Below are positions 1 through 24,078 of a stretch of 32,000 nt of DNA, piece after piece. Within the stretch, counting starts at the first letter, position 1. Every line of letters begins with the position of its first letter. The stretch is taken from the NCBI RefSeq assembly GCF_001548275.1, contig NZ_AP014945.1, positions 1,140,001 through 1,172,000 of the forward strand. The letters run 5' to 3'. The notes beneath the pieces are model-generated. The model did not search any database. It was given only the letters and a program-made list of their open reading frames with translations, and was not told the DNA's origin. This DNA comes from Caldimicrobium thiodismutans (GTDB lineage Bacteria > Desulfobacterota > Thermodesulfobacteria > Thermodesulfobacteriales > Thermodesulfobacteriaceae). A program made the translations under genes and the position numbers.

Positions 1-547
1 ACCCGTAACTCCAAACTGGGGTTACGCAGAAAGGCCTATGGAGGCCCTCTTATGTTAAATCCTTGGTATGTAACAGGACTTTGTGAGGGAGAAGCCTCTT
101 TTAGTGTAAGTTTTAATTTAAGAAATAAGTTAAATGTTGGTATAGAGACCAAGCCTTCCTTTTCCATAACCTTAAATCGAAGAGATTTAGAGCTTATAAA
201 AGAAATTTATAAGTTTTTTGGTTGTGGAGGGATAAGGTATTCAAGGCCTGATAGATGTTATAAATATGAGGTTAGGTCTGTTAATGACCTTGTAGAAAAA
301 ATTATTCCGCATTTTGAGGAGTATCCTTTACAAGGAGCTAAAAAAAGGGATTTTGAGCTATTTAAAAAAATATGTCTTATGGTAAGAGCGAATTTACATC
401 TTTCTTTTAAGTATTTACCTGAAATTATTGATTTTGCTTATCAAATGAATGAGAGTGGTAGAAGAAGGTATACTAAGGAGGATCTCCTAAGGGTTCTTGG
501 TGGTGTGAAGGGATAGTCTACCCCTTGCCGAAAGGCTTGAGAGGGTG
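1..547 (+). mobile_element. 3' portion of an intron (group I-type, inferred) interrupting the 23S rRNA gene; 5' part lies upstream of the window
   Basis: Positions 1-547 have no 23S colinearity and are AT-rich apart from short structured ends: CGTAAC/GTTACG hairpin at 4-26 and a GCC-GAAA-GGC tetraloop hairpin at about 527-536. The segment contains a LAGLIDADG ORF. Base 547 is G (expected terminal G of a group I intron). Conserved 23S sequence AAGTTCCGACCTGCATGAATGGCGTAACGA starts at 548. Confidence 0.65.
52..516 (+). CDS. LAGLIDADG-family homing endonuclease, single-motif (homodimer-type), intron-encoded
   Basis: 154-aa ORF with ATG at 52. It has an N-terminal LAGLIDADG-type motif WYVTGLCEGEASFSV and the downstream pattern IIPHFEEYPLQGAKKRDFELFKKI typical of rRNA-intron endonucleases. 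It is embedded in the non-rRNA insertion within the 23S gene. Confidence 0.85.
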   Translation: MLNPWYVTGLCEGEASFSVSFNLRNKLNVGIETKPSFSITLNRRDLELIKEIYKFFGCGGIRYSRPDRCYKYEVRSVNDLVEKIIPHFEEYPLQGAKKRDFELFKKICLMVRANLHLSFKYLPEIIDFAYQMNESGRRRYTKEDLLRVLGGVKG

Positions 548-1505
<958 letters not shown>

Positions 1506-1562
1506 AGTACCAGCTTAAATCCTTCAAAGACTCCCTATTCACTTGTATAAAATTTATAGATT

Positions 1563-1682
1563 TCCCGGGTGCCCATACCGGAGGGGAAACACCCGTTCCC
1601 ATTCCGAACACGGTCGTTAAGCCCTCCAGGGCCGATGGTACTGGGCGGTTACCCGCCTGGGAGAGTAGGTCGGTGCCCGGGG
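1563..1682 (+). rRNA. rrf: 5S rRNA
   Basis: CCCGGGTGCCCATACC...CCCATTCCGAACACGG...GCCGATGGTACTGGG...GGGAGAGTAGGTCGGTGCCCGGGG matches conserved 5S blocks, and the terminal helix pairs CCCGGG/CCCGGG. It lies about 58 nt after the 23S end. Ends are +/- 2 nt. Confidence 0.92.
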
Positions 1683-4319: not shown

Positions 4320-4927
4320 TGGAAGATGATAAATTATTAAGGTTTCACGAAAGATTAAAGGATTTTCTCCAAAAAAATCTTACTAAATTATTAAATTTAG
4401 TCTTATTTTTCGTTATTATTATTGCCCTTTCAGGGGGCTGGTTTTTTTATCAGAAAAACAAGGAAAAAAGGGCCTTTGAAAAGTTCGTTGAGATTATTCA
4501 CAAGCAGGGTGATTTAAAGACCTTAGAGGATTTTGTTAAAAAATATGGAGGCACACAGGCAGGGCTTCAGGCCTCCTTGATTTTATGGGATACCTTACAA
4601 AAAGGGGGAACTCCTCATCAACTTAATGAGGGGCTGAACACTCTTAAAAAAGTCTATCCCAGAAAGCTTGAAGGCTTAATACTTTATGCACAGGCAAAAG
4701 TTTTTGAGGACTCGGGAAAAAGGGCAGAGGCCATATCTATCTATCAAAAACTTTTAGATAAAGACCCCAATCTTAAAGATCAAGTTTTAATGGATCTGGC
4801 AAGGTTATCAGCCTCAACACAAAAAGATGTGGCTATCAAGTATTATCAGGAAATCCAAAAGAATTATCCTCAATTTTACGGTAAAGGGCTTGCAGAATAT
4901 AAGCTTTATGAATTAAAGAGAAAGTGA
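4319..4927 (+). CDS. Membrane-anchored TPR-like protein (YfgM-like architecture), function unknown
   Basis: 202 aa with a TAATG overlap with the upstream gene. It has a single N-terminal TM helix (LLNLVLFFVIIIALSGGWFFY) followed by helical-repeat sequence (AEAISIYQKLLDKDPN...). Confidence 0.45.
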   Translation: MEDDKLLRFHERLKDFLQKNLTKLLNLVLFFVIIIALSGGWFFYQKNKEKRAFEKFVEIIHKQGDLKTLEDFVKKYGGTQAGLQASLILWDTLQKGGTPHQLNEGLNTLKKVYPRKLEGLILYAQAKVFEDSGKRAEAISIYQKLLDKDPNLKDQVLMDLARLSASTQKDVAIKYYQEIQKNYPQFYGKGLAEYKLYELKRK

Positions 4928-9996: not shown

Positions 9997-11196
9997 TTAG
10001 AAGAGGGCTCCGTTTTTAAGGGATATGTAAACTCCAAGGATAACCATTATCACAATCCAGAGCCACATAAGAATAACGGAGAACTTTCCAAGCCCTTGAG
10101 CACCAACCTCTTTTATACCTTTCCCTGCTCTATAAGCAACTAAGGCTGTATAATAGAGAACTATTAAGCCCATAAGAAAGGTAAGTAAGAAGAGAACAAG
10201 GGATCCTAAGGAAAGATTTACAGGATAATCAGCAAAAGTATATCCAACCCCTTTAAAATAACTCATTCTCAGGACCTCACGGGCCAAACTCATCACAAGC
10301 ACGGTTATACCGAGGAACAAGGCTGTTGAAACCGCATACCGGGAGGGATTTTTCTGAATATAAAAAAGAAAAGCAATAAATAAAAGAGCCACAATAAGGG
10401 CCAAAATAAAATAGGGATTGGTCATGAAATTGAGATCCTTCGGGAGAGTAATCAACCAGAGAAATCCAGACACAGCTTGAAGAAGGGAAAAAATAAGAAC
10501 AAGCTTGGCACCAAGTCTTTCTACCCAATTAAGATAGTTAGAATCATACTTTCTTCTAAAATATCTGGAATAGAAAATCAGCCATACTCCGGTTACTGCA
10601 AGAGCAGGGAACATAAAATGCAGGAATCTAAAGATTTCAAAACCATGGAGATATTTTCCACTTGAGATATAGGTATGGTTAAGGGTTGCAAAGTTTGGCC
10701 ATTTTTCTGGATATAGCTGGGTAACTGCAAGAGAATGCATAACTATTCCTGCAAAAAGGAGCAATGCAAGAGAAAGTATTGGCCAGATAATTTGCCCTCT
10801 TCCTTTATAACCACCTCCAAGGTAAAAGAAATAGGCAAAAACAAAGGCAAGGGCAATGAAGGCAAGAAAAGCAAGAGCCCAGACCGCAGAAAGGGTATTG
10901 GCAGTATACCAGAAAGGATCATAAATGACCTGAATAAAAAGTAAAGGAGCAACTCCAAGAACAATGGCCCAGGAAATTGAATTTACCACAAGTCTTGAAA
11001 GGGAAGAAGAAAGTTTTATCCAGTAATCTTCATTTTTTATTTTTCCCCAGATAATAAGAGCAAGGGATCCAATAACAAGATTGACAAGTAAAATGTGAAG
11101 GGCAAAGGTTAAAACAAGAAAAAAATCAAAAACAATGGGTGGAGAAGGAAGCCCTGCAACATCTCTCATTGCTTTGATATATTCTCCTATAGCCAT
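9997..11196 (-). CDS. Polytopic integral membrane protein, unknown function; probable partner subunit of the upstream bd-like/cytochrome c protein
   Basis: 399 aa and almost entirely hydrophobic helices. It starts 11 nt after the upstream stop with a TAAGGAGG RBS, which implies co-translation. I recognise no motif. Confidence 0.5.
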   Translation of the reverse strand: MAIGEYIKAMRDVAGLPSPPIVFDFFLVLTFALHILLVNLVIGSLALIIWGKIKNEDYWIKLSSSLSRLVVNSISWAIVLGVAPLLFIQVIYDPFWYTANTLSAVWALAFLAFIALAFVFAYFFYLGGGYKGRGQIIWPILSLALLLFAGIVMHSLAVTQLYPEKWPNFATLNHTYISSGKYLHGFEIFRFLHFMFPALAVTGVWLIFYSRYFRRKYDSNYLNWVERLGAKLVLIFSLLQAVSGFLWLITLPKDLNFMTNPYFILALIVALLFIAFLFYIQKNPSRYAVSTALFLGITVLVMSLAREVLRMSYFKGVGYTFADYPVNLSLGSLVLFLLTFLMGLIVLYYTALVAYRAGKGIKEVGAQGLGKFSVILMWLWIVIMVILGVYISLKNGALF

Positions 11197-11207
11197 GGCT
11201 TACCTCC

Positions 11208-12524
11208 TTATTTTTTAATTAAGGTAAAAAGATATTCTGCAGCCACTTTTCTTTCTTCATCATTGCCAGCAAAGGGTGGCATATATGGAAAGGAACCAAG
11301 GGCAGAAAGAAAGGCATCAATATCCTCAGGACTCTGAGGAGAAAGTTTGCCAAAAAGTGCAGGAAGAGGTCTTATTCCCTTTTGCGTAAAAGCATGACAA
11401 TTGGCACAATTGTGAAGGGCAATGATTCTTCCTACTTCCAAACGATTTTCTGGGGTAATTTTTCTCAGGGATTCAGGTAAATAACCAAGTCTTGGAAGAA
11501 GCCCCTCTTTTTGAATTATTTCTATTTCTGCTTTGATATTTTTGGCAGGAAGATCCTTTGCTACAACTTGATGTCCATACATGAAATAATTGATAATATA
11601 GGGTCTTCTCAATCCCTCTCTAATTCCCTCGGCACAAAGAATTCCAAGGAAGGCAATAATAATCATAAGAAAAGAAAGTAAAAAATTATTAAGCCTTGGG
11701 ATCAAAAAACCTGTAAGGATAAAATAAAAACTCAAAATCAGGTAACTTGCCAAAGCATACTTTCCAAGTTTAACCAGATAGGGAAGACCGCTGTAAATAT
11801 CTTTCATATTTTGGGGAAGTTTAGAAGAATACCATATAATAAAAAGACCTCCCAGAATCATTCCAACAAGGGAAATTCGTGAGATAATTTTGGTAAGATC
11901 TGATTTGGTATTTTCTTTAAGGGTGGAGGTAATAACAAGACCGTAAATTCCTGCAACCCCAAACATCAAGAAAGTTCTTGCAAAAAGTTGAGGAAAATAT
12001 GTAGGATTGAAGAAACCATCAAAGAAGTCACCTGTTTCAAGCCATTTTCCAGGGGTTAACATAAAGGCAAGAATTCCCGTGATAATAATCATGCTGATCC
12101 AGGCTGCAATGGCATAAAGATAACCTATGCGGATATGAGTTTTTGGATCAACTTTTCCAAGGGTATAATAGTAAGCATAGATGGTTGCAATCTCAATAAG
12201 GAAAAAGACCCATTCTGTTGCCCAACCCCAGACATAGTTGTGAATCAGCCCTGATATTCCCCTTGGACTTGAGACAGTTGCAGAATACCAGATACCAATT
12301 CCTGAAAGGGAACCAAAGATGAAGCTGAAGATTAAAAGTAAAAGGGTAAAGCGTTTGACAAAATCAAGGTAATCAAGCCGATTCCGTGCGTAGGCAAGCT
12401 TCTCTATGAAAACTGTTACCCATAGAGCTGCAACTGCAAGATGGGAAGGCAAAACATGAAAAGAGGCAATAAGCCCTATAACTAAAGCTGAACTTAAATA
12501 GGGCACTTCCCATATTGGATACAT
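11208..12524 (-). CDS. Cytochrome bd subunit I (CydA)-like membrane protein fused to a C-terminal monohaem cytochrome c domain
   Basis: 438 aa. The N-terminal helices align by eye with E. coli CydA: ALVIGLIASFHVLP vs ALTAMYHFLFVP (His19 position), ATEWVFFLIEIA vs AIEGLMAFFLES, and THIRIGYLYAIAAW vs VQHMCVTWLVALG. The C-terminal roughly 90 aa carry CANCH (CxxCH) and a downstream YMPPF candidate Met ligand. Confidence 0.5.
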   Translation of the reverse strand: MYPIWEVPYLSSALVIGLIASFHVLPSHLAVAALWVTVFIEKLAYARNRLDYLDFVKRFTLLLLIFSFIFGSLSGIGIWYSATVSSPRGISGLIHNYVWGWATEWVFFLIEIATIYAYYYTLGKVDPKTHIRIGYLYAIAAWISMIIITGILAFMLTPGKWLETGDFFDGFFNPTYFPQLFARTFLMFGVAGIYGLVITSTLKENTKSDLTKIISRISLVGMILGGLFIIWYSSKLPQNMKDIYSGLPYLVKLGKYALASYLILSFYFILTGFLIPRLNNFLLSFLMIIIAFLGILCAEGIREGLRRPYIINYFMYGHQVVAKDLPAKNIKAEIEIIQKEGLLPRLGYLPESLRKITPENRLEVGRIIALHNCANCHAFTQKGIRPLPALFGKLSPQSPEDIDAFLSALGSFPYMPPFAGNDEERKVAAEYLFTLIKK

Positions 12525-22590: not shown

Positions 22591-22619
22591 TTGACTTTTC
22601 ATAACTAAATCATTAATAT
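22591..22619 (+). promoter_or_regulatory. Candidate promoter (TTGACT-17-TAATAT) for the rhodanese selenoprotein gene
   Basis: TTGACT at 22591-22596, a 17-nt spacer and TAATAT at 22614-22619, about 40 nt upstream of ATG 22661 (RBS AAGGGGGTG). Confidence 0.45.
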
Positions 22620-22660
22620 CTTGATAAGATTATAACAATTTTAATTAAGGGGGTGTTTTT

Positions 22661-24028
22661 ATGGGAAGTAAGATCCTTATGAGGTTAGGTTTAATTGGAG
22701 GGTTACTTGGGAGTTCCTTTTTACTTTCGCAGGGGCTTAGTTCCTCTCAAAGTCCACAACTTCCAAGTATCCACAAAAGTTGTGGAATTGCAGGCTGTCA
22801 TAAGGCAGCTCCTTCTGAGTTCCGTGGAAATATAGTCTCTGTATCAGGAAAGGCTGAACTTATTCAAATTGACACAGGCCAGGTTATTGAGGTTAAATTT
22901 GATGATAATACCAAAGTAGTCAACTGGAATCAGCCTTTAAATAAGATTGGAAGGGGAACTCCCGTTAAGATAGTCTATACCCAGAAAGAAGGGAAGTATT
23001 ATGCCACTCTCGTGAGTGTAAAGCCACCCATGAGTGTCCCACCTGACCAGAGGATAAGTCTTGAAGATCTTAAGACAATCTGGGCTAATAAAGAAGGCCT
23101 AATTGTGGATGTTCGTCCTAAAGCTAAGTATGATGAGGGTCACATTCCTAGCTCAATTAATATCTTTATGGCTGATATGGATAAACACCTTGATAAGCTT
23201 CCCCAGGATAAAAAGGCTCTAATTGTATTTTACTGTGAAGGCCCGAGGTGAGCCCTTACTCCTGGGGCTGTCCGTAGGGCAGCTGGTTTTGGTTATACCA
23301 ATGTTAAGGGCTTTATTGAGGGGATTCCTGCTTGGCAAAAAGCCGGGCTTCCTGTAGCAATAACCTCAGATTACATTAAAAAATTTCTCAAGGAGGATAT
23401 GCCCTTTGTGCTTATTGATTTAAGGGAAAAGAAGGTAGCAGAAAAAGAACATCTCCCTAGTGCTATCAATATTCCCCTTAAAGAACTTGAAAAGTATAAA
23501 GACAAATTTCCAACCCATAAAAAAGCCCCTATTATAGTTTATGCAGATAGTGATGAACTTGCTATAAAGGGATTTAACATAGTTAGAAACTGGGGATATG
23601 AGCATACCGCTTATCTGCCCGGGGGAATCTCTGCTTGGAAACAGGCAGGAGGGCAGATTCTTGCAGGAGCTCTAAAAAAAGAAATTGTATATGTTCCTAA
23701 ACCCAAGCCAGGATCTTTTCCAGTAGAGGAGTTTAAAAAACTTGTGGCTTCACCTGAAATGTCAGACAAATACTTTATTATTGATGTCCGGGAGGCTGAT
23801 GAATATGCCACAGGGGCTTTTAAATACGCTAAAAATATCCCCCTTTCTCAACTTGAAGGAAGCCTTAATGAAATCCCCAAGGATAAAGAAATCATCCTTT
23901 ACTGTGCAACAGGTGTGAGATCTGAAATGGCCTATAATACCCTTAAAAAAGCAGGATTTAAGGTTTATTTTGTAGATGCAAAAATAGAATTTCAAAATGG
24001 AAAATATGAAATAATATCTAATCAGTAG
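22661..24028 (+). CDS. Exported triple-rhodanese-domain protein with selenocysteine (in-frame TGA at 23249-23251) in the first active-site loop (C-E-G-P-R-U)
   Basis: Track ORFs 22661..23251 and 23399..24028 are in the same frame, and the 147 nt between them have no stop. Read-through gives ...LIVFYCEGPR-TGA-ALTPGAVRRAAGFGYTNVKGFIEGIPAWQKAGLPVAI..., which completes a canonical rhodanese C-terminal half. Domain 2 lacks Cys (VYADSDE). Domain 3 has YCATGVRS. The N-terminus is signal-peptide-like (MGSKILMRLGLIGGLLGSSFLLSQG). Confidence 0.75.
23266..23284 (+). promoter_or_regulatory. Candidate bacterial SECIS hairpin for the rhodanese UGA
   Basis: GGCUGUCC-GUA-GGGCAGCU forms a 7-8 bp stem including G:U pairs, with an apical GUA loop. 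It starts about 15 nt after the UGA. Confidence 0.5.
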
Positions 24029-24040
24029 AATCCTATGTAA

Positions 24041-24078
24041 CCCCGGCCGGTTAATTTTTTTTCGGTCGGGGTTTTTTT
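24041..24078 (+). terminator. Rho-independent terminator of the rhodanese gene
   Basis: CCCCGGCCG-(13-nt loop)-CGGTCGGGG followed by TTTTTTT, 12 nt after the stop. Confidence 0.7.

Follow-up and report, generated by a model that had tools for sequence, protein, structure and literature searches.

Positions 22661 to 24028 (plus strand) of the 32,000-nucleotide stretch of Caldimicrobium thiodismutans DNA analysed here, hereafter called the window, raise the question of whether two adjacent open reading frames encode two proteins or are parts of one gene in which a UGA codon is read as selenocysteine (Sec). Translation of 22661-24028 gave one frame of 455 codons and a final stop, with the TGA at 23249-23251 (codon 197) as the sole internal stop. 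The ORFs 22661-23251 and 23399-24028 share this frame, no stop occurs in the 147 nt between them, and the peptide read through the TGA is ...ALIVFYCEGPR-*-ALTPGAVRRAAGFGYTNVKGF..., all as described in an earlier note made from the sequence alone. The annotation of assembly GCA_017880035.1 splits the gene into two CDS of 196 and 209 amino acids. The evidence set out below indicates, with a probability of roughly 0.85, that 22661-24028 constitutes a single gene, the product being an exported selenoprotein of about 50 kDa in which UGA codon 197 is read as Sec by means of a SECIS element within the coding sequence. The hairpin at 23266-23284 would direct this decoding, with SelB and tRNA-Sec as the presumed mediators. 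The features of the coding sequence around the TGA are as follows.

22661 to 24028, plus strand: probable single CDS of 455 codons including Sec197 (one frame, one TGA; full-length Cys homologues of about 450 aa)
23063 to 23344, plus strand: rhodanese domain 1, residues 135-228, with the UGA inside (Pfam PF00581, profile positions 3-102 of 102)
23234 to 23236, plus strand: TGT, Cys192, the canonical rhodanese active-site Cys, which opens the loop C-E-G-P-R-U (sequence and homologue alignment)
23249 to 23251, plus strand: TGA, predicted Sec197, loop position 6 and start of the motif U-A-L-T-P (codon comparison at 93 sites)

The match of rhodanese domain 1 to its profile is continuous over the TGA, in agreement with the earlier claim that the upstream ORF is incomplete as a domain. 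The invariant residues G211, Y212, G221 and W225 follow the TGA, in the part that none of the annotated ORFs includes. Differences from three orthologues within the 147-nt gap fell mainly at codon position 3 (18/6/26, 20/9/27 and 15/6/31 at positions 1/2/3). TGA is the ordinary stop of 6 of the 26 ORFs in the window, and a global reassignment of this codon was therefore rejected; the genetic code is not reassigned.

At 93 distinct homologous sites, the codon in the Sec column was TGA in 48, TGC or TGT in 44 and CGA in one. The column is thus Cys in homologues without Sec, and these do not terminate at it, full-length proteins of about 450 amino acids being common; both comparisons had been proposed as checks in the earlier note. 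TGA forms occur in Caldimicrobium, Thermodesulfobacterium hveragerdense, Thermodesulfovibrionales and Dissulfurispiraceae, as well as in Geomonas, Desulfosediminicola, Desulfobacterales and Rokuibacteriota. The isolate genome of the cultured T. hveragerdense, GCA_000423845.1, has an orthologue with the same TGA, likewise split into two CDS, and its protein P0014, traced back to DNA, is a gene call lying 3' of the in-frame TGA. Geomonas diazotrophica strain Red69 also carries a Sec form. Matches of 250-261 amino acids were gene calls starting within about 10 residues after the Sec column. Such C-terminal fragments, starting no more than about 10 residues past the column, made up 18 of the best 120 protein clusters, and the relatives of the Geomonas protein included at least 120 fragments from the N-terminal side, about 204 amino acids long, the organisms named for these being Geomonas and Geoanaerobacter. 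Members of the family are widespread, and their annotation is usually wrong.

The motif at the column is U-x-[LM]-[ST]-P in the orthologues, mostly U-x-[LM]-S, and U-A-L-T in the window gene. The vicinal Cys is conserved in every Sec form examined. Across the homologues the Sec-aligned Cys is better conserved than the canonical "catalytic" Cys, and in 12 homologue clusters it is retained despite replacement of the canonical Cys by G, D or S. The active-site loop with C-x4-U spacing, as first proposed, is present, but the residue treated there as catalytic is the less conserved of the two.

A hairpin follows the UGA, with the arm GCUGUCC beginning 15 nt past it as noted earlier.

23266 to 23284, plus strand: predicted bacterial SECIS hairpin, 8-bp stem, apical loop GUA, 22 nt from UGA to loop (folding and comparison of orthologues)

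Its arms and loop are GGCUGUCC/GUA/GGGCAGCU. Folded alone (25 nt), it had an energy of −11.9 kcal/mol (z = −2.7), and 2 of 200 shuffled sequences were as stable; the fold of the wider 62-nt stretch after the UGA was not unusual compared with shuffles (z = −0.33). The putative signal is carried by the local hairpin, and its main support is the comparison with other genomes. The published bacterial SECIS model allows a loop of 3-9 nt with G within its first two positions, a stem of 4-16 bp, a spacing of 16-37 nt and a minimum free energy of −7.5 kcal/mol or lower, and the hairpin at 23266-23284 falls within all of these limits. The Rfam search of the window at gathering thresholds returned rRNA and tRNA only, and no SECIS family.

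In all 48 distinct TGA sites the hairpin was found in identical register. In-register pairs averaged 6.5 of 7 at TGA sites compared with 4.6 of 7 at Cys sites, and the hairpin energy was −11.0 and −2.7 kcal/mol, respectively (Mann-Whitney p ~1e-12, the sequences being related, so that the p-values overstate their independence). Compensatory changes, with both sides altered, occurred in five of the eight stem pairs, values which none of 500 shuffles reached, and 85 % of cells were paired in the true register compared with 40-50 % in slid controls. The loop nucleotide G26 is conserved at 90 % or more. The conserved S-A...A-E peptide, coded by UCNGCN...GCNGAR, itself favours part of the stem, which accounts for the 4.6 pairs still seen in Cys forms. 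The hairpin pointed out in the earlier note is thus supported as a selenocysteine signal both by the SECIS constraints and by covariation across orthologues.

The signals that flank the gene were read from the window as follows.

22591 to 22619, plus strand: weak candidate for a sigma-70-like promoter, TTGACT-17-TAATAT, about 40 nt upstream of the start codon (consensus scan, 9/12 matches)
22648 to 22655, plus strand: ribosome-binding site AAGGGGGT, preceding the ATG at 22661 (direct reading of the sequence)
24039 to 24078, plus strand: intrinsic terminator, 12-bp stem followed by a U-run, 11 nt past the TAG stop (folding)

The terminator at 24039-24078 (−21 kcal/mol, z = −4.35, none of 200 shuffles as stable) is strong and stands after the second ORF only, which was counted as support for one transcript. 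The hairpin at 23266-23284 is followed in the window by GGTTTTGGTT, and a simple scan scores the two together as terminator-like. It was rejected as a terminator, since it is kept in orthologues without a T-run, with tails such as AAACUCGG.

This bears on the reading in which two separate genes are divided by a true stop at the TGA, and the hairpin plus T-rich tail would act between them as an intrinsic terminator or an attenuator. Such an arrangement is very improbable, even with two CDS annotated in both GCA_017880035.1 and the T. hveragerdense record and with the outcome of the terminator scan. The 196-aa product of a separate first gene would stop inside a rhodanese domain, the supposed 147-nt spacer codes for invariant family residues and has evolved as coding sequence, and full-length Cys forms are common. 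The sequence AAGGAGG, immediately ahead of the ATG at 23399, might be taken in favour of a second start, but it lies 2 nt from the ATG and merely represents K-E-D codons, and the Met at that position is not conserved among homologues. A pseudogene or a sequencing error would need a change of only one base, from TGT or TGC to TGA, and GCA_017880035.1 is a metagenome-derived assembly. The chance of this is practically negligible, however, as the same TGA is found at the 48 sites in many phyla, an isolate genome included, the specific hairpin goes with TGA and not with Cys codons, and the sequence 3' of the TGA is intact and conserved.

The UGA might also be recoded otherwise, either as Cys, with a non-canonical tRNA cooperating with SelB, or as Trp or Cys through near-cognate read-through. 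SelB-dependent insertion of Cys at UGA has reportedly been observed, and neither selA, selB, selD nor tRNA-Sec was found within the window or within positions 2046-30533 (about 28 kb) of the 72-kb contig JAEDZT010003224.1 of GCA_017880035.1. The hairpin nevertheless matches the Sec-specific SECIS model, and TGA elsewhere in the window acts as a stop. Moreover, the peroxiredoxin gene in the window has a TGA at the peroxidatic Cys (FTFV-U-PTE), the classic Sec position of peroxiredoxins, with a hairpin of its own. This second UGA gene was counted as indirect support for the use of Sec in the organism, and recoding to another amino acid is quite improbable.

With the UGA read as Sec, the single product would consist of an N-terminal region, with a putative export signal, and three rhodanese domains. 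The N-terminal features are as follows.

22661 to 22741, plus strand: signal-peptide-like N-terminus, residues 1 to about 27 (basic n-region, then a hydrophobic stretch)
22781 to 22801, plus strand: motif C41-G-I-A-G-C46-H47 (alignment of homologues)
22817 to 23023, plus strand: predicted OB-fold beta-barrel domain, residues about 53-121 (AlphaFold2 model)

The N-terminus reads MGSKILMR, LGLIGGLLGSSFLL and SQGLSSS in that order, with two basic residues before the hydrophobic residues 9-22, and similar N-termini are present in homologues. It resembles a signal peptide, as had been proposed, and the location would accordingly be periplasmic. The residues C41, C46 and H47 are invariant across 56 full-length sequences; no other column of the N-domain alignment is invariant. 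Most homologues have the motif as CXXCH, the window protein as CX4CH. Exported proteins canonically bind haem c through CxxCH, and C41-x4-C46-H47 would probably serve as a covalent attachment site for haem c, a Cys2His metal site being the less likely alternative. The c-type assignment is weakened by the OB barrel fold and by the distal ligand, no conserved His or Met having been found for it in the homologue alignments. The AlphaFold2 model of residues 36-128, made from the window's own sequence, had a pLDDT of 91.3 and six strands. In this model the short helix bearing C-x4-C-H is predicted to pack on the OB-fold barrel. The best PDB matches of the domain were CusF and SilF (TM 0.51-0.70), and not a cytochrome fold. 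Geobacter members gave a weak, below-threshold Pfam match to DUF7283. The beta-rich domain of about 90 amino acids in the earlier description can thus be specified as a six-stranded OB barrel, whereas the invariant C-x4-C-H motif had not been mentioned there.

The domains downstream of rhodanese 1 are as follows.

23378 to 23650, plus strand: rhodanese domain 2, residues about 240-330, boundaries approximate (Pfam; NCBIfam PspE-type match to residues 252-324)
23714 to 23986, plus strand: rhodanese domain 3, residues about 352-442, boundaries approximate (Pfam; NCBIfam matches to residues 363-434)

Pfam reported rhodanese only, with 156.1 bits for PF00581 in three stretches (gathering cut-off 22.2). 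Rhodanese 2 has no Cys at its active-site position (IVYADSDE), and is for this reason presumably non-catalytic. Rhodanese 3 has the classical loop YC415ATGVRS, with TGT at 23903-23905; none of 56 homologues departs from C415 or G418. The structure of the rhodanese part was taken from the Cys orthologue P0003, the AlphaFold2 model of which had a pLDDT of 91.6 and matched rhodaneses in fold. Pfam and the structure model together uphold the architecture first deduced by eye, of one rhodanese with Cys and Sec, one with YADSDE and no Cys, and one with YCATGVRS.

Rhodanese selenoproteins were said in the earlier note to have appeared in computational surveys, and the literature agrees: proteins of such type have already been predicted by computer, and none has been studied experimentally. 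Form 1 of the rhodanese-like selenoproteins is reportedly due to Zhang and Gladyshev 2005, to whom reviews attribute it. It is described as belonging to PF00581, with the motif UxxS and the representative WP_010941598.1 of Geobacter sulfurreducens (PMC13188914, PMC9312934). Compared by motif only, UxxS and the U-x-[LM]-[ST]-P of the window family are compatible, and both are predicted in silico. Very many Sec forms of the window family are from Geobacterales, and G. sulfurreducens is the host of the form 1 representative; no G. sulfurreducens member was found among the matches listed. TsoB (NCBIfam NF045694, UxxxxU, similar to a rhodanese/DsbD fusion) also has two chalcogen residues four apart. 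Rhodanese 1 aligned with positions 46-164 of the 572 of this model (E = 4.6e-19), but membership was rejected, as the score of 67.9 bits is below the cut-off of 805, only the rhodanese part was aligned, and Pfam found no DsbD part. TsoB has two Sec and a DsbD-like membrane part, whereas the window protein has Cys and Sec, the C..CH/OB domain and two further rhodaneses. In rhodanese_LYCAU (NCBIfam NF041203, CxU, "form 3") Sec lies near the canonical Cys as it does in the window protein, but two residues after it instead of five, in a single domain of about 126 amino acids. Membership was rejected here also (68.9 bits, cut-off 115; motif C-x4-U and not C-x-U).

The best-matching solved single-domain structure (E ~1e-8) was that of BH2092 from Bacillus halodurans (PDB 3NHV, 3O3W), the loop of which, YCWGPAC, has the same C-x-G-P-x-C arrangement as the window family. 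BH2092 is a Cys form with a single domain from a Gram-positive host, in contrast to the Sec form with three rhodaneses described here. The PDB table gives it merely as 'BH2092 protein' and no function, and we take the entries to be structural-genomics deposits without a described function. E. coli YnjE (PDB 2WLR/3IPO) is akin to the window protein in being periplasmic with three rhodaneses, and has one classical active Cys; the overall TM-score was only about 0.25, and the domain arrangement differs. Sud, SbdP and PspE are exported periplasmic rhodanese sulfur carriers. Neither these nor YnjE have Sec, a second loop Cys or the C..CH/OB domain.

In Thermodesulfovibrio and Geomonas, a membrane-anchored cytochrome of about 630 amino acids with 8-9 CxxCH motifs is encoded directly downstream of the orthologue, so that multihaem cytochrome genes stand beside orthologues in two phyla. 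The Geomonas Sec orthologue adjoins a nine-haem cytochrome distinct from extIJKL. Some distant relatives, which match without the N-terminal domain, adjoin an octahaem cytochrome c (PF11783) and cytochrome b561, and others of this kind adjoin molybdopterin oxidoreductases. One recurrent "neighbour" cluster was discarded, as it consisted of ORFs antisense to the gene. Beside the window gene, neither a cytochrome nor a reductase is encoded. The rhodanese-like lipoprotein ExtH (about 49 kDa), encoded beside MccSep in extHIJKL of G. sulfurreducens, is a possible Cys-form relative.

The recently characterised MccSep (ExtKL) of G. sulfurreducens is a periplasmic pentahaem selenoprotein polysulfide reductase, encoded by two ORFs joined by an in-frame UGA, in which haem c, Cys and Sec act on polysulfide and selenite (PMC13510729). 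It served as the working analogy for a mechanism, but differs from the window protein in having a multihaem cytochrome fold and the Sec context GUPTP. We infer a periplasmic redox role in sulfane-sulfur handling, with Cys-Sec chemistry. The mechanism suggested, tentatively and at less than even odds, is that of a periplasmic redox or sulfur-relay module based on Sec197, and not of a plain sulfurtransferase. Sec197 would lie at the end of the anion-binding loop and the N-terminus of the next helix, in a U-x-x-T/S-P motif, and would act as the nucleophile of rhodanese 1. Its targets would be sulfane sulfur (of polysulfide, thiosulfate, tetrathionate or derived from S8) or selenite, and the adduct would be resolved with the adjacent Cys192 as a selenenylsulfide. 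The Cys192/Sec197 pair would be re-reduced via the haem of the N-terminal domain together with a multihaem cytochrome partner, and rhodanese 3 would be an ordinary persulfide carrier.

The same selenoprotein might instead be a non-redox periplasmic carrier of sulfur or selenium as persulfide or perselenide, comparable to Sud, SbdP and PspE, its C..CH/OB part being a CusF-like metal site or a disulfide. This is rather unlikely, but a serious candidate: the nearest folds of the N-domain are the metallochaperones CusF and SilF, no distal haem ligand is conserved in the homologues, rhodanese domains are classically transferases, and no redox partner lies beside the window gene. Set against it are the canonical haem c character of CxxCH in an exported protein, the synteny with multihaem cytochromes in two phyla, the vicinal Cys of all Sec forms examined, and the literature, according to which Sec is almost always at redox sites.

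A wider reading, which is speculative and doubtful, would make the family a periplasmic redox enzyme built on rhodanese domains, and not a sulfurtransferase, in which the nucleophile has shifted to loop position 6, forms a selenenylsulfide with the old Cys and is wired to a haem c borne on the OB domain. In such an enzyme the Cys/Sec may supply the missing distal haem ligand, by analogy with Cys in TsdA, SoxAX and MccSep, and polysulfide, thiosulfate or selenite may be reduced or activated by the protein, which would either serve multihaem cytochrome partners or act in their stead. If true, sulfur-disproportionating and sulfur- or sulfate-reducing thermophiles would possess a novel kind of catalytic module combining haem, selenium and sulfur.

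No NCBIfam model was matched at its cut-off, so that no selenoprotein-specific model rescues the split annotation; Sec is used at about half of the examined sites, and the fragment proteins at the column fit the same split call. As the gene is split by annotation, metabolic reconstructions of sulfur-cycling anaerobes probably miss a full-length exported protein, the groups affected being Nitrospirota, Thermodesulfobacteriota, Geobacterales and Desulfobacterales. The Sec forms carried by T. hveragerdense and G. diazotrophica Red69 make the question accessible to experiment. The conservation pattern suggests that loop position 6 is under selection, and not the textbook Cys, which points to a chemistry unlike classical persulfide transfer, and the family would be linked to periplasmic sulfur or selenium respiration by its invariant motif of haem type and by the multihaem cytochromes that recur beside it.

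The candidate selenoprotein gene at 22661-24028 (forward strand of the window) occupies one frame of 455 codons, in which the TGA at 23249-23251 (codon 197) is the sole internal stop. As the earlier note had read them, the mechanically called ORFs 22661-23251 and 23399-24028 share this frame, and the 147 nt between them contain no stop. In assembly GCA_017880035.1 (contig JAEDZT010003224.1) the annotation splits the gene into CDS of 196 and 209 amino acids. Pfam places three rhodanese stretches in the read-through product, the best of which (residues 135-228, profile positions 3-102 of 102) crosses the TGA, so that the 196-amino-acid product would stop in mid-domain and the upstream ORF is, as had been proposed, an incomplete domain. 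The family-invariant residues G211, Y212, G221 and W225 of the homologue alignment are all encoded between the TGA and the next ATG, and differences from three orthologues within this stretch fall mainly at codon position 3 and least often at position 2; on both counts the stretch is translated sequence. The signals around and within the gene are the following.

5' of the ATG at 22661, forward strand: ribosome-binding site, AAGGGGGT
23266-23284, forward strand: predicted SECIS hairpin, GGCUGUCC/GUA/GGGCAGCU, 8-bp stem, loop GUA
24039-24078, forward strand: strong intrinsic terminator, 12-bp stem and U-run, -21 kcal/mol, z = -4.35

The intrinsic terminator is present only after the second ORF. 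A simple terminator scan also scored 23266-23293, the SECIS hairpin followed by GGTTTTGGTT, as terminator-like, a score which could count as support for two genes in automated pipelines.

A protein search with the read-through sequence gave many full-length homologues of about 450 amino acids (31-64 % identity), in the alignment of which Cys occupies the TGA column, as part of Y-C-x-G-x-x-C-x-[LM]-[ST]-P. Proteins of 250-261 amino acids, starting no more than about 10 residues past the column, made up 18 of the 120 best clusters, and are the typical gene-caller product 3' of an in-frame TGA. With the N-terminal fragment of a Geomonas protein as query, at least 120 clusters of about 204 amino acids were obtained, and all end at the TGA column. 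In the DNA of Thermodesulfobacterium hveragerdense (GCA_000423845.1) the orthologue reads VVYCEGPR-TGA-ALTPAAV across two annotated genes of 197 and 250 amino acids. A scan of one genome per species added 80 further loci, and all loci together with the window comprised 93 distinct motif-bearing sites, at which the codon was TGA (48 sites), TGC or TGT (44) or CGA (1), answering in the affirmative the earlier question of whether homologues have Cys here. Sec forms occur in Caldimicrobium, Thermodesulfovibrionales and other Nitrospirota, Dissulfurispiraceae, Geomonas/Geobacter, Desulfosediminicola, Desulfobacterales and Rokuibacteriota; in the Betaproteobacteria, Cys forms predominate.

The hairpin with GU at its apex, noticed earlier downstream of the UGA, has a folding energy of -11.9 kcal/mol when folded alone (z = -2.7), and folding of the surrounding 62 nt taken whole is not unusual (z = -0.33). 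The bacterial SECIS consensus (PMC13188914) has an apical loop of 3-9 nt, with G within the first two loop positions and then usually G or U, a stem of 4-16 bp, a UGA-to-loop distance of 16-37 nt and a minimum free energy of -7.5 kcal/mol or lower; the window hairpin agrees with it in all four respects (stem 8 bp, loop GUA, spacing 22 nt, -11.9 kcal/mol). Since the sites are codon-aligned, the identical hairpin register could be scored at every site. In-register pairs numbered 6.5 of 7 at the 48 TGA sites and 4.6 at the 44 Cys sites, and the energy of the fixed structure was -11.0 and -2.7 kcal/mol, respectively (Mann-Whitney p ~1e-12, which is not a true probability because the sequences are related). 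Part of the conserved peptide, S-A...A-E, uses partly self-complementary codons, which accounts for the leftover pairing in the Cys forms. In the alignment of the 48 TGA sequences 85 % of the cells were paired, compared with 40-50 % when the 3' partner was slid by 1-3 columns; five of the eight hairpin pairs had changes on both sides, none of 500 shuffles reached the observed pairing or covariation score, and loop nucleotide 26 was G in at least 90 %. The stems are lineage-specific (GCUGUCC in the window, AGCGGUC in T. hveragerdense, CUCUGCC in Nitrospirota and CUCCGCC in Geomonas) and all four fold at -11.5 to -16 kcal/mol. By sequence criteria, the hairpin at 23266-23284 is thus predicted to be a bacterial SECIS.

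At position 4538 of locus L015, a TGC site in a Nitrospirae MAG, there is a strong in-register hairpin, CUUCCGCC/AAUAA/GGCGGGAAG, with no G in its loop, which looks like a recent Sec-to-Cys conversion. Two Desulfobacterales loci, L077 (726, 1038) and L078 (4157, 4469), have two tandem rhodanese domains, with C-x4-U in both and a hairpin downstream of either Sec codon, and would code for double-Sec proteins.

No tRNA-Sec was found in the window, and none of selA, selB, selD and tRNA-Sec in positions 2046-30533 of the 72-kb contig JAEDZT010003224.1. The window contains a second predicted selenoprotein gene, for a 2-Cys peroxiredoxin (12642 to ~13262, reverse strand), in which a TGA at 13112-13110 replaces the peroxidatic Cys codon, with a hairpin, GGCAGCA/GUUG/UGCUGCC, 13 nt downstream of it; this gene, too, is split in annotation (CDS of 48 and 152 amino acids) and adjoins cytochrome bd oxidase genes (9997-12524, reverse strand). 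Reassignment of TGA in the genetic code was rejected, because TGA is an ordinary stop in 6 of the 26 window ORFs. The peroxiredoxin UGA and the unreassigned TGA may be taken as indirect support for Sec use by the organism. Sec at codon 197 is considered highly probable, and the reading of the locus as one gene coding for an exported selenoprotein with SECIS-directed Sec197 is given a probability of about 0.85.

Sec is encoded at the sixth position of the rhodanese 1 loop, C192-E-G-P-R-U197, five residues after the loop Cys as first described, and is the first residue of the motif U-x-[LM]-[ST]-P. In the Cys-form homologues the second, Sec-aligned Cys is always kept, whereas 12 protein clusters (P0023, P0050, P0067, P0073, P0074, P0081, P0082, P0085, P0086, P0088, P0094 and P0101) have Gly, Asp or Ser in place of the canonical first Cys, which argues that the Sec-aligned residue is the primary target of selection. 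In established rhodanese structures, the residue at loop position 6 turns its side chain towards the sulfur of the catalytic Cys, and the next helix begins there; by analogy, Cys192 and Sec197 may be in contact and form a bond. BH2092 (PDB 3NHV, 3O3W) is a solved Cys-form single domain with the same loop, YCWGPAC.

The domain order proposed earlier was upheld: a signal-peptide-like N-terminus (residues 1 to ~27), a beta-rich domain and three rhodaneses, the second of which has no active-site Cys (YADSDE). In rhodanese 3 the loop is classical and invariant, C415-x-x-G418-x-R, and the chain combines a classical rhodanese domain with the N-terminal domain. In the AlphaFold2 model of the latter (pLDDT 91.3) a short helix precedes an OB barrel of six strands, and its best solved matches are the periplasmic Cu/Ag chaperones CusF and SilF (TM 0.51-0.70); Pfam gave only a sub-threshold DUF7283 match, in Geobacter members alone. 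C41, C46 and H47 (C41-x4-C46-H47) are invariant in 56 full-length sequences and are the sole invariant columns of the N-domain alignment, the motif being CXXCH in most lineages and CX4CH in the Thermodesulfobacterium and Thermodesulfovibrio group. In exported proteins CxxCH is canonically where haem c is attached, and a haem c site is the more likely reading of the motif. The domain lacks a cytochrome fold and a conserved distal His or Met, however, so that a Cys2His metal site is also possible. The model of a full-length Cys orthologue, P0003 (pLDDT 91.6, pTM 0.80), has multi-rhodanese proteins as solved neighbours (Pseudomonas aeruginosa 1YT8, EanB and periplasmic YnjE), from which its domain arrangement differs, as the overall TM is low.

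The closest homologue (L003, JGI Ga0370516_045332, 199-1440; 64 % identity) is the site with CGA (Arg) at the Sec/Cys column; it has C-A-M-P-G-Y-H instead of C-x4-C-H, and its SECIS hairpin is intact. This joint loss of two otherwise invariant sites, on a single 1.5-kb metagenome contig, could reflect a decaying copy or a sequencing artefact, or could hint at cooperation between the two sites.

The window gene is solitary: it is flanked upstream by a HIT-family gene of the opposite strand and downstream by tRNA-Ala and rpsT. Ribosomal RNA genes stand at the start of the window (1-1681), a 23S gene of which the 3' part is present and a 5S gene, followed by a 626-amino-acid ORF whose exact product has no gene-collection record, probably because a different start was called. 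In Thermodesulfovibrio (L005, L006, L009) and Geomonas (L046), homologous cytochrome c genes (L005 2270-4171; L006 4850-6937; L009 5393-7288; L046 5353-7224) follow the orthologue after 40-80 nt, a pair conserved across two phyla. The cytochrome (~630 amino acids) has an N-terminal hydrophobic stretch, 8-9 CxxCH motifs in intact copies and only weak cytochrome c7/c3/c552-type Pfam matches. Small exported single-domain rhodaneses adjoin the Thermodesulfovibrio orthologue. In 19 loci (including L012, L013, L016, L018, L019, L021, L024 and L026) the gene has a sigma-54-dependent activator with a PAS sensor domain nearby, mostly just upstream on the opposite strand, suggesting that these lineages regulate the gene and do not express it constitutively; no such activator adjoins the window gene. 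More distant relatives match without the N-terminal domain; 3' of some lie genes for an octahaem cytochrome c (PF11783, "Cytochrome c bacterial") and a cytochrome b561, and 5' of others one for a molybdopterin oxidoreductase. Such recurrent neighbours suggest a role in the periplasmic respiration of sulfur or selenium compounds.

The recently described MccSep of G. sulfurreducens (PMC13510729) can serve as a working model, by analogy and not by relationship. This pentahaem selenoprotein of the periplasm reduces polysulfide and selenite by means of a Sec and a Cys that ligates haem, and is likewise encoded by two ORFs joined by UGA. In the corresponding scheme Sec197 would attack sulfane sulfur or selenite, Cys192 would resolve the adduct to a selenenylsulfide, electrons would be supplied via the N-terminal haem and a partner cytochrome, and rhodanese 3 would shuttle persulfide sulfur. 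As a whole this relay is tentative, if plausible; its main rival, a plain carrier of the Sud, SbdP or PspE type whose N-domain would be a metal site, is considered only slightly less likely.

Rhodanese selenoproteins have been predicted since 2005, in agreement with the earlier statement that they appear in computational surveys, and a 2026 review recognizes five forms: form 1, UxxS (PF00581, WP_010941598.1 of G. sulfurreducens); forms 2 and 4, UxxG, with Sec, on our reading of the motif, most likely at the canonical Cys position; form 3, CxU (NF041203); and form 5, UxxxxU (TsoB, NF045694), whose two Sec residues are spaced as the C-x4-U of the window family. Membership of NF041203 (68.9 bits, cut-off 115) or TsoB (67.9 bits, cut-off 805) was rejected, the scores being under both cut-offs. 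No NCBIfam model covers the family, which fits the split annotations. The family reads U-x-x-S/T and so fits form 1, and since Geobacterales carry very many of its Sec forms, it is likely to be form 1. What appears to be added here is the invariant C..CH/OB domain, the better conservation of the Sec-aligned than of the canonical Cys, the cytochrome synteny, the breadth of Sec use and the systematic mis-annotation. The gene belongs to a class already on specialists' lists, and is real, widespread, mis-annotated and experimentally tractable, with an unusual active-site arrangement.
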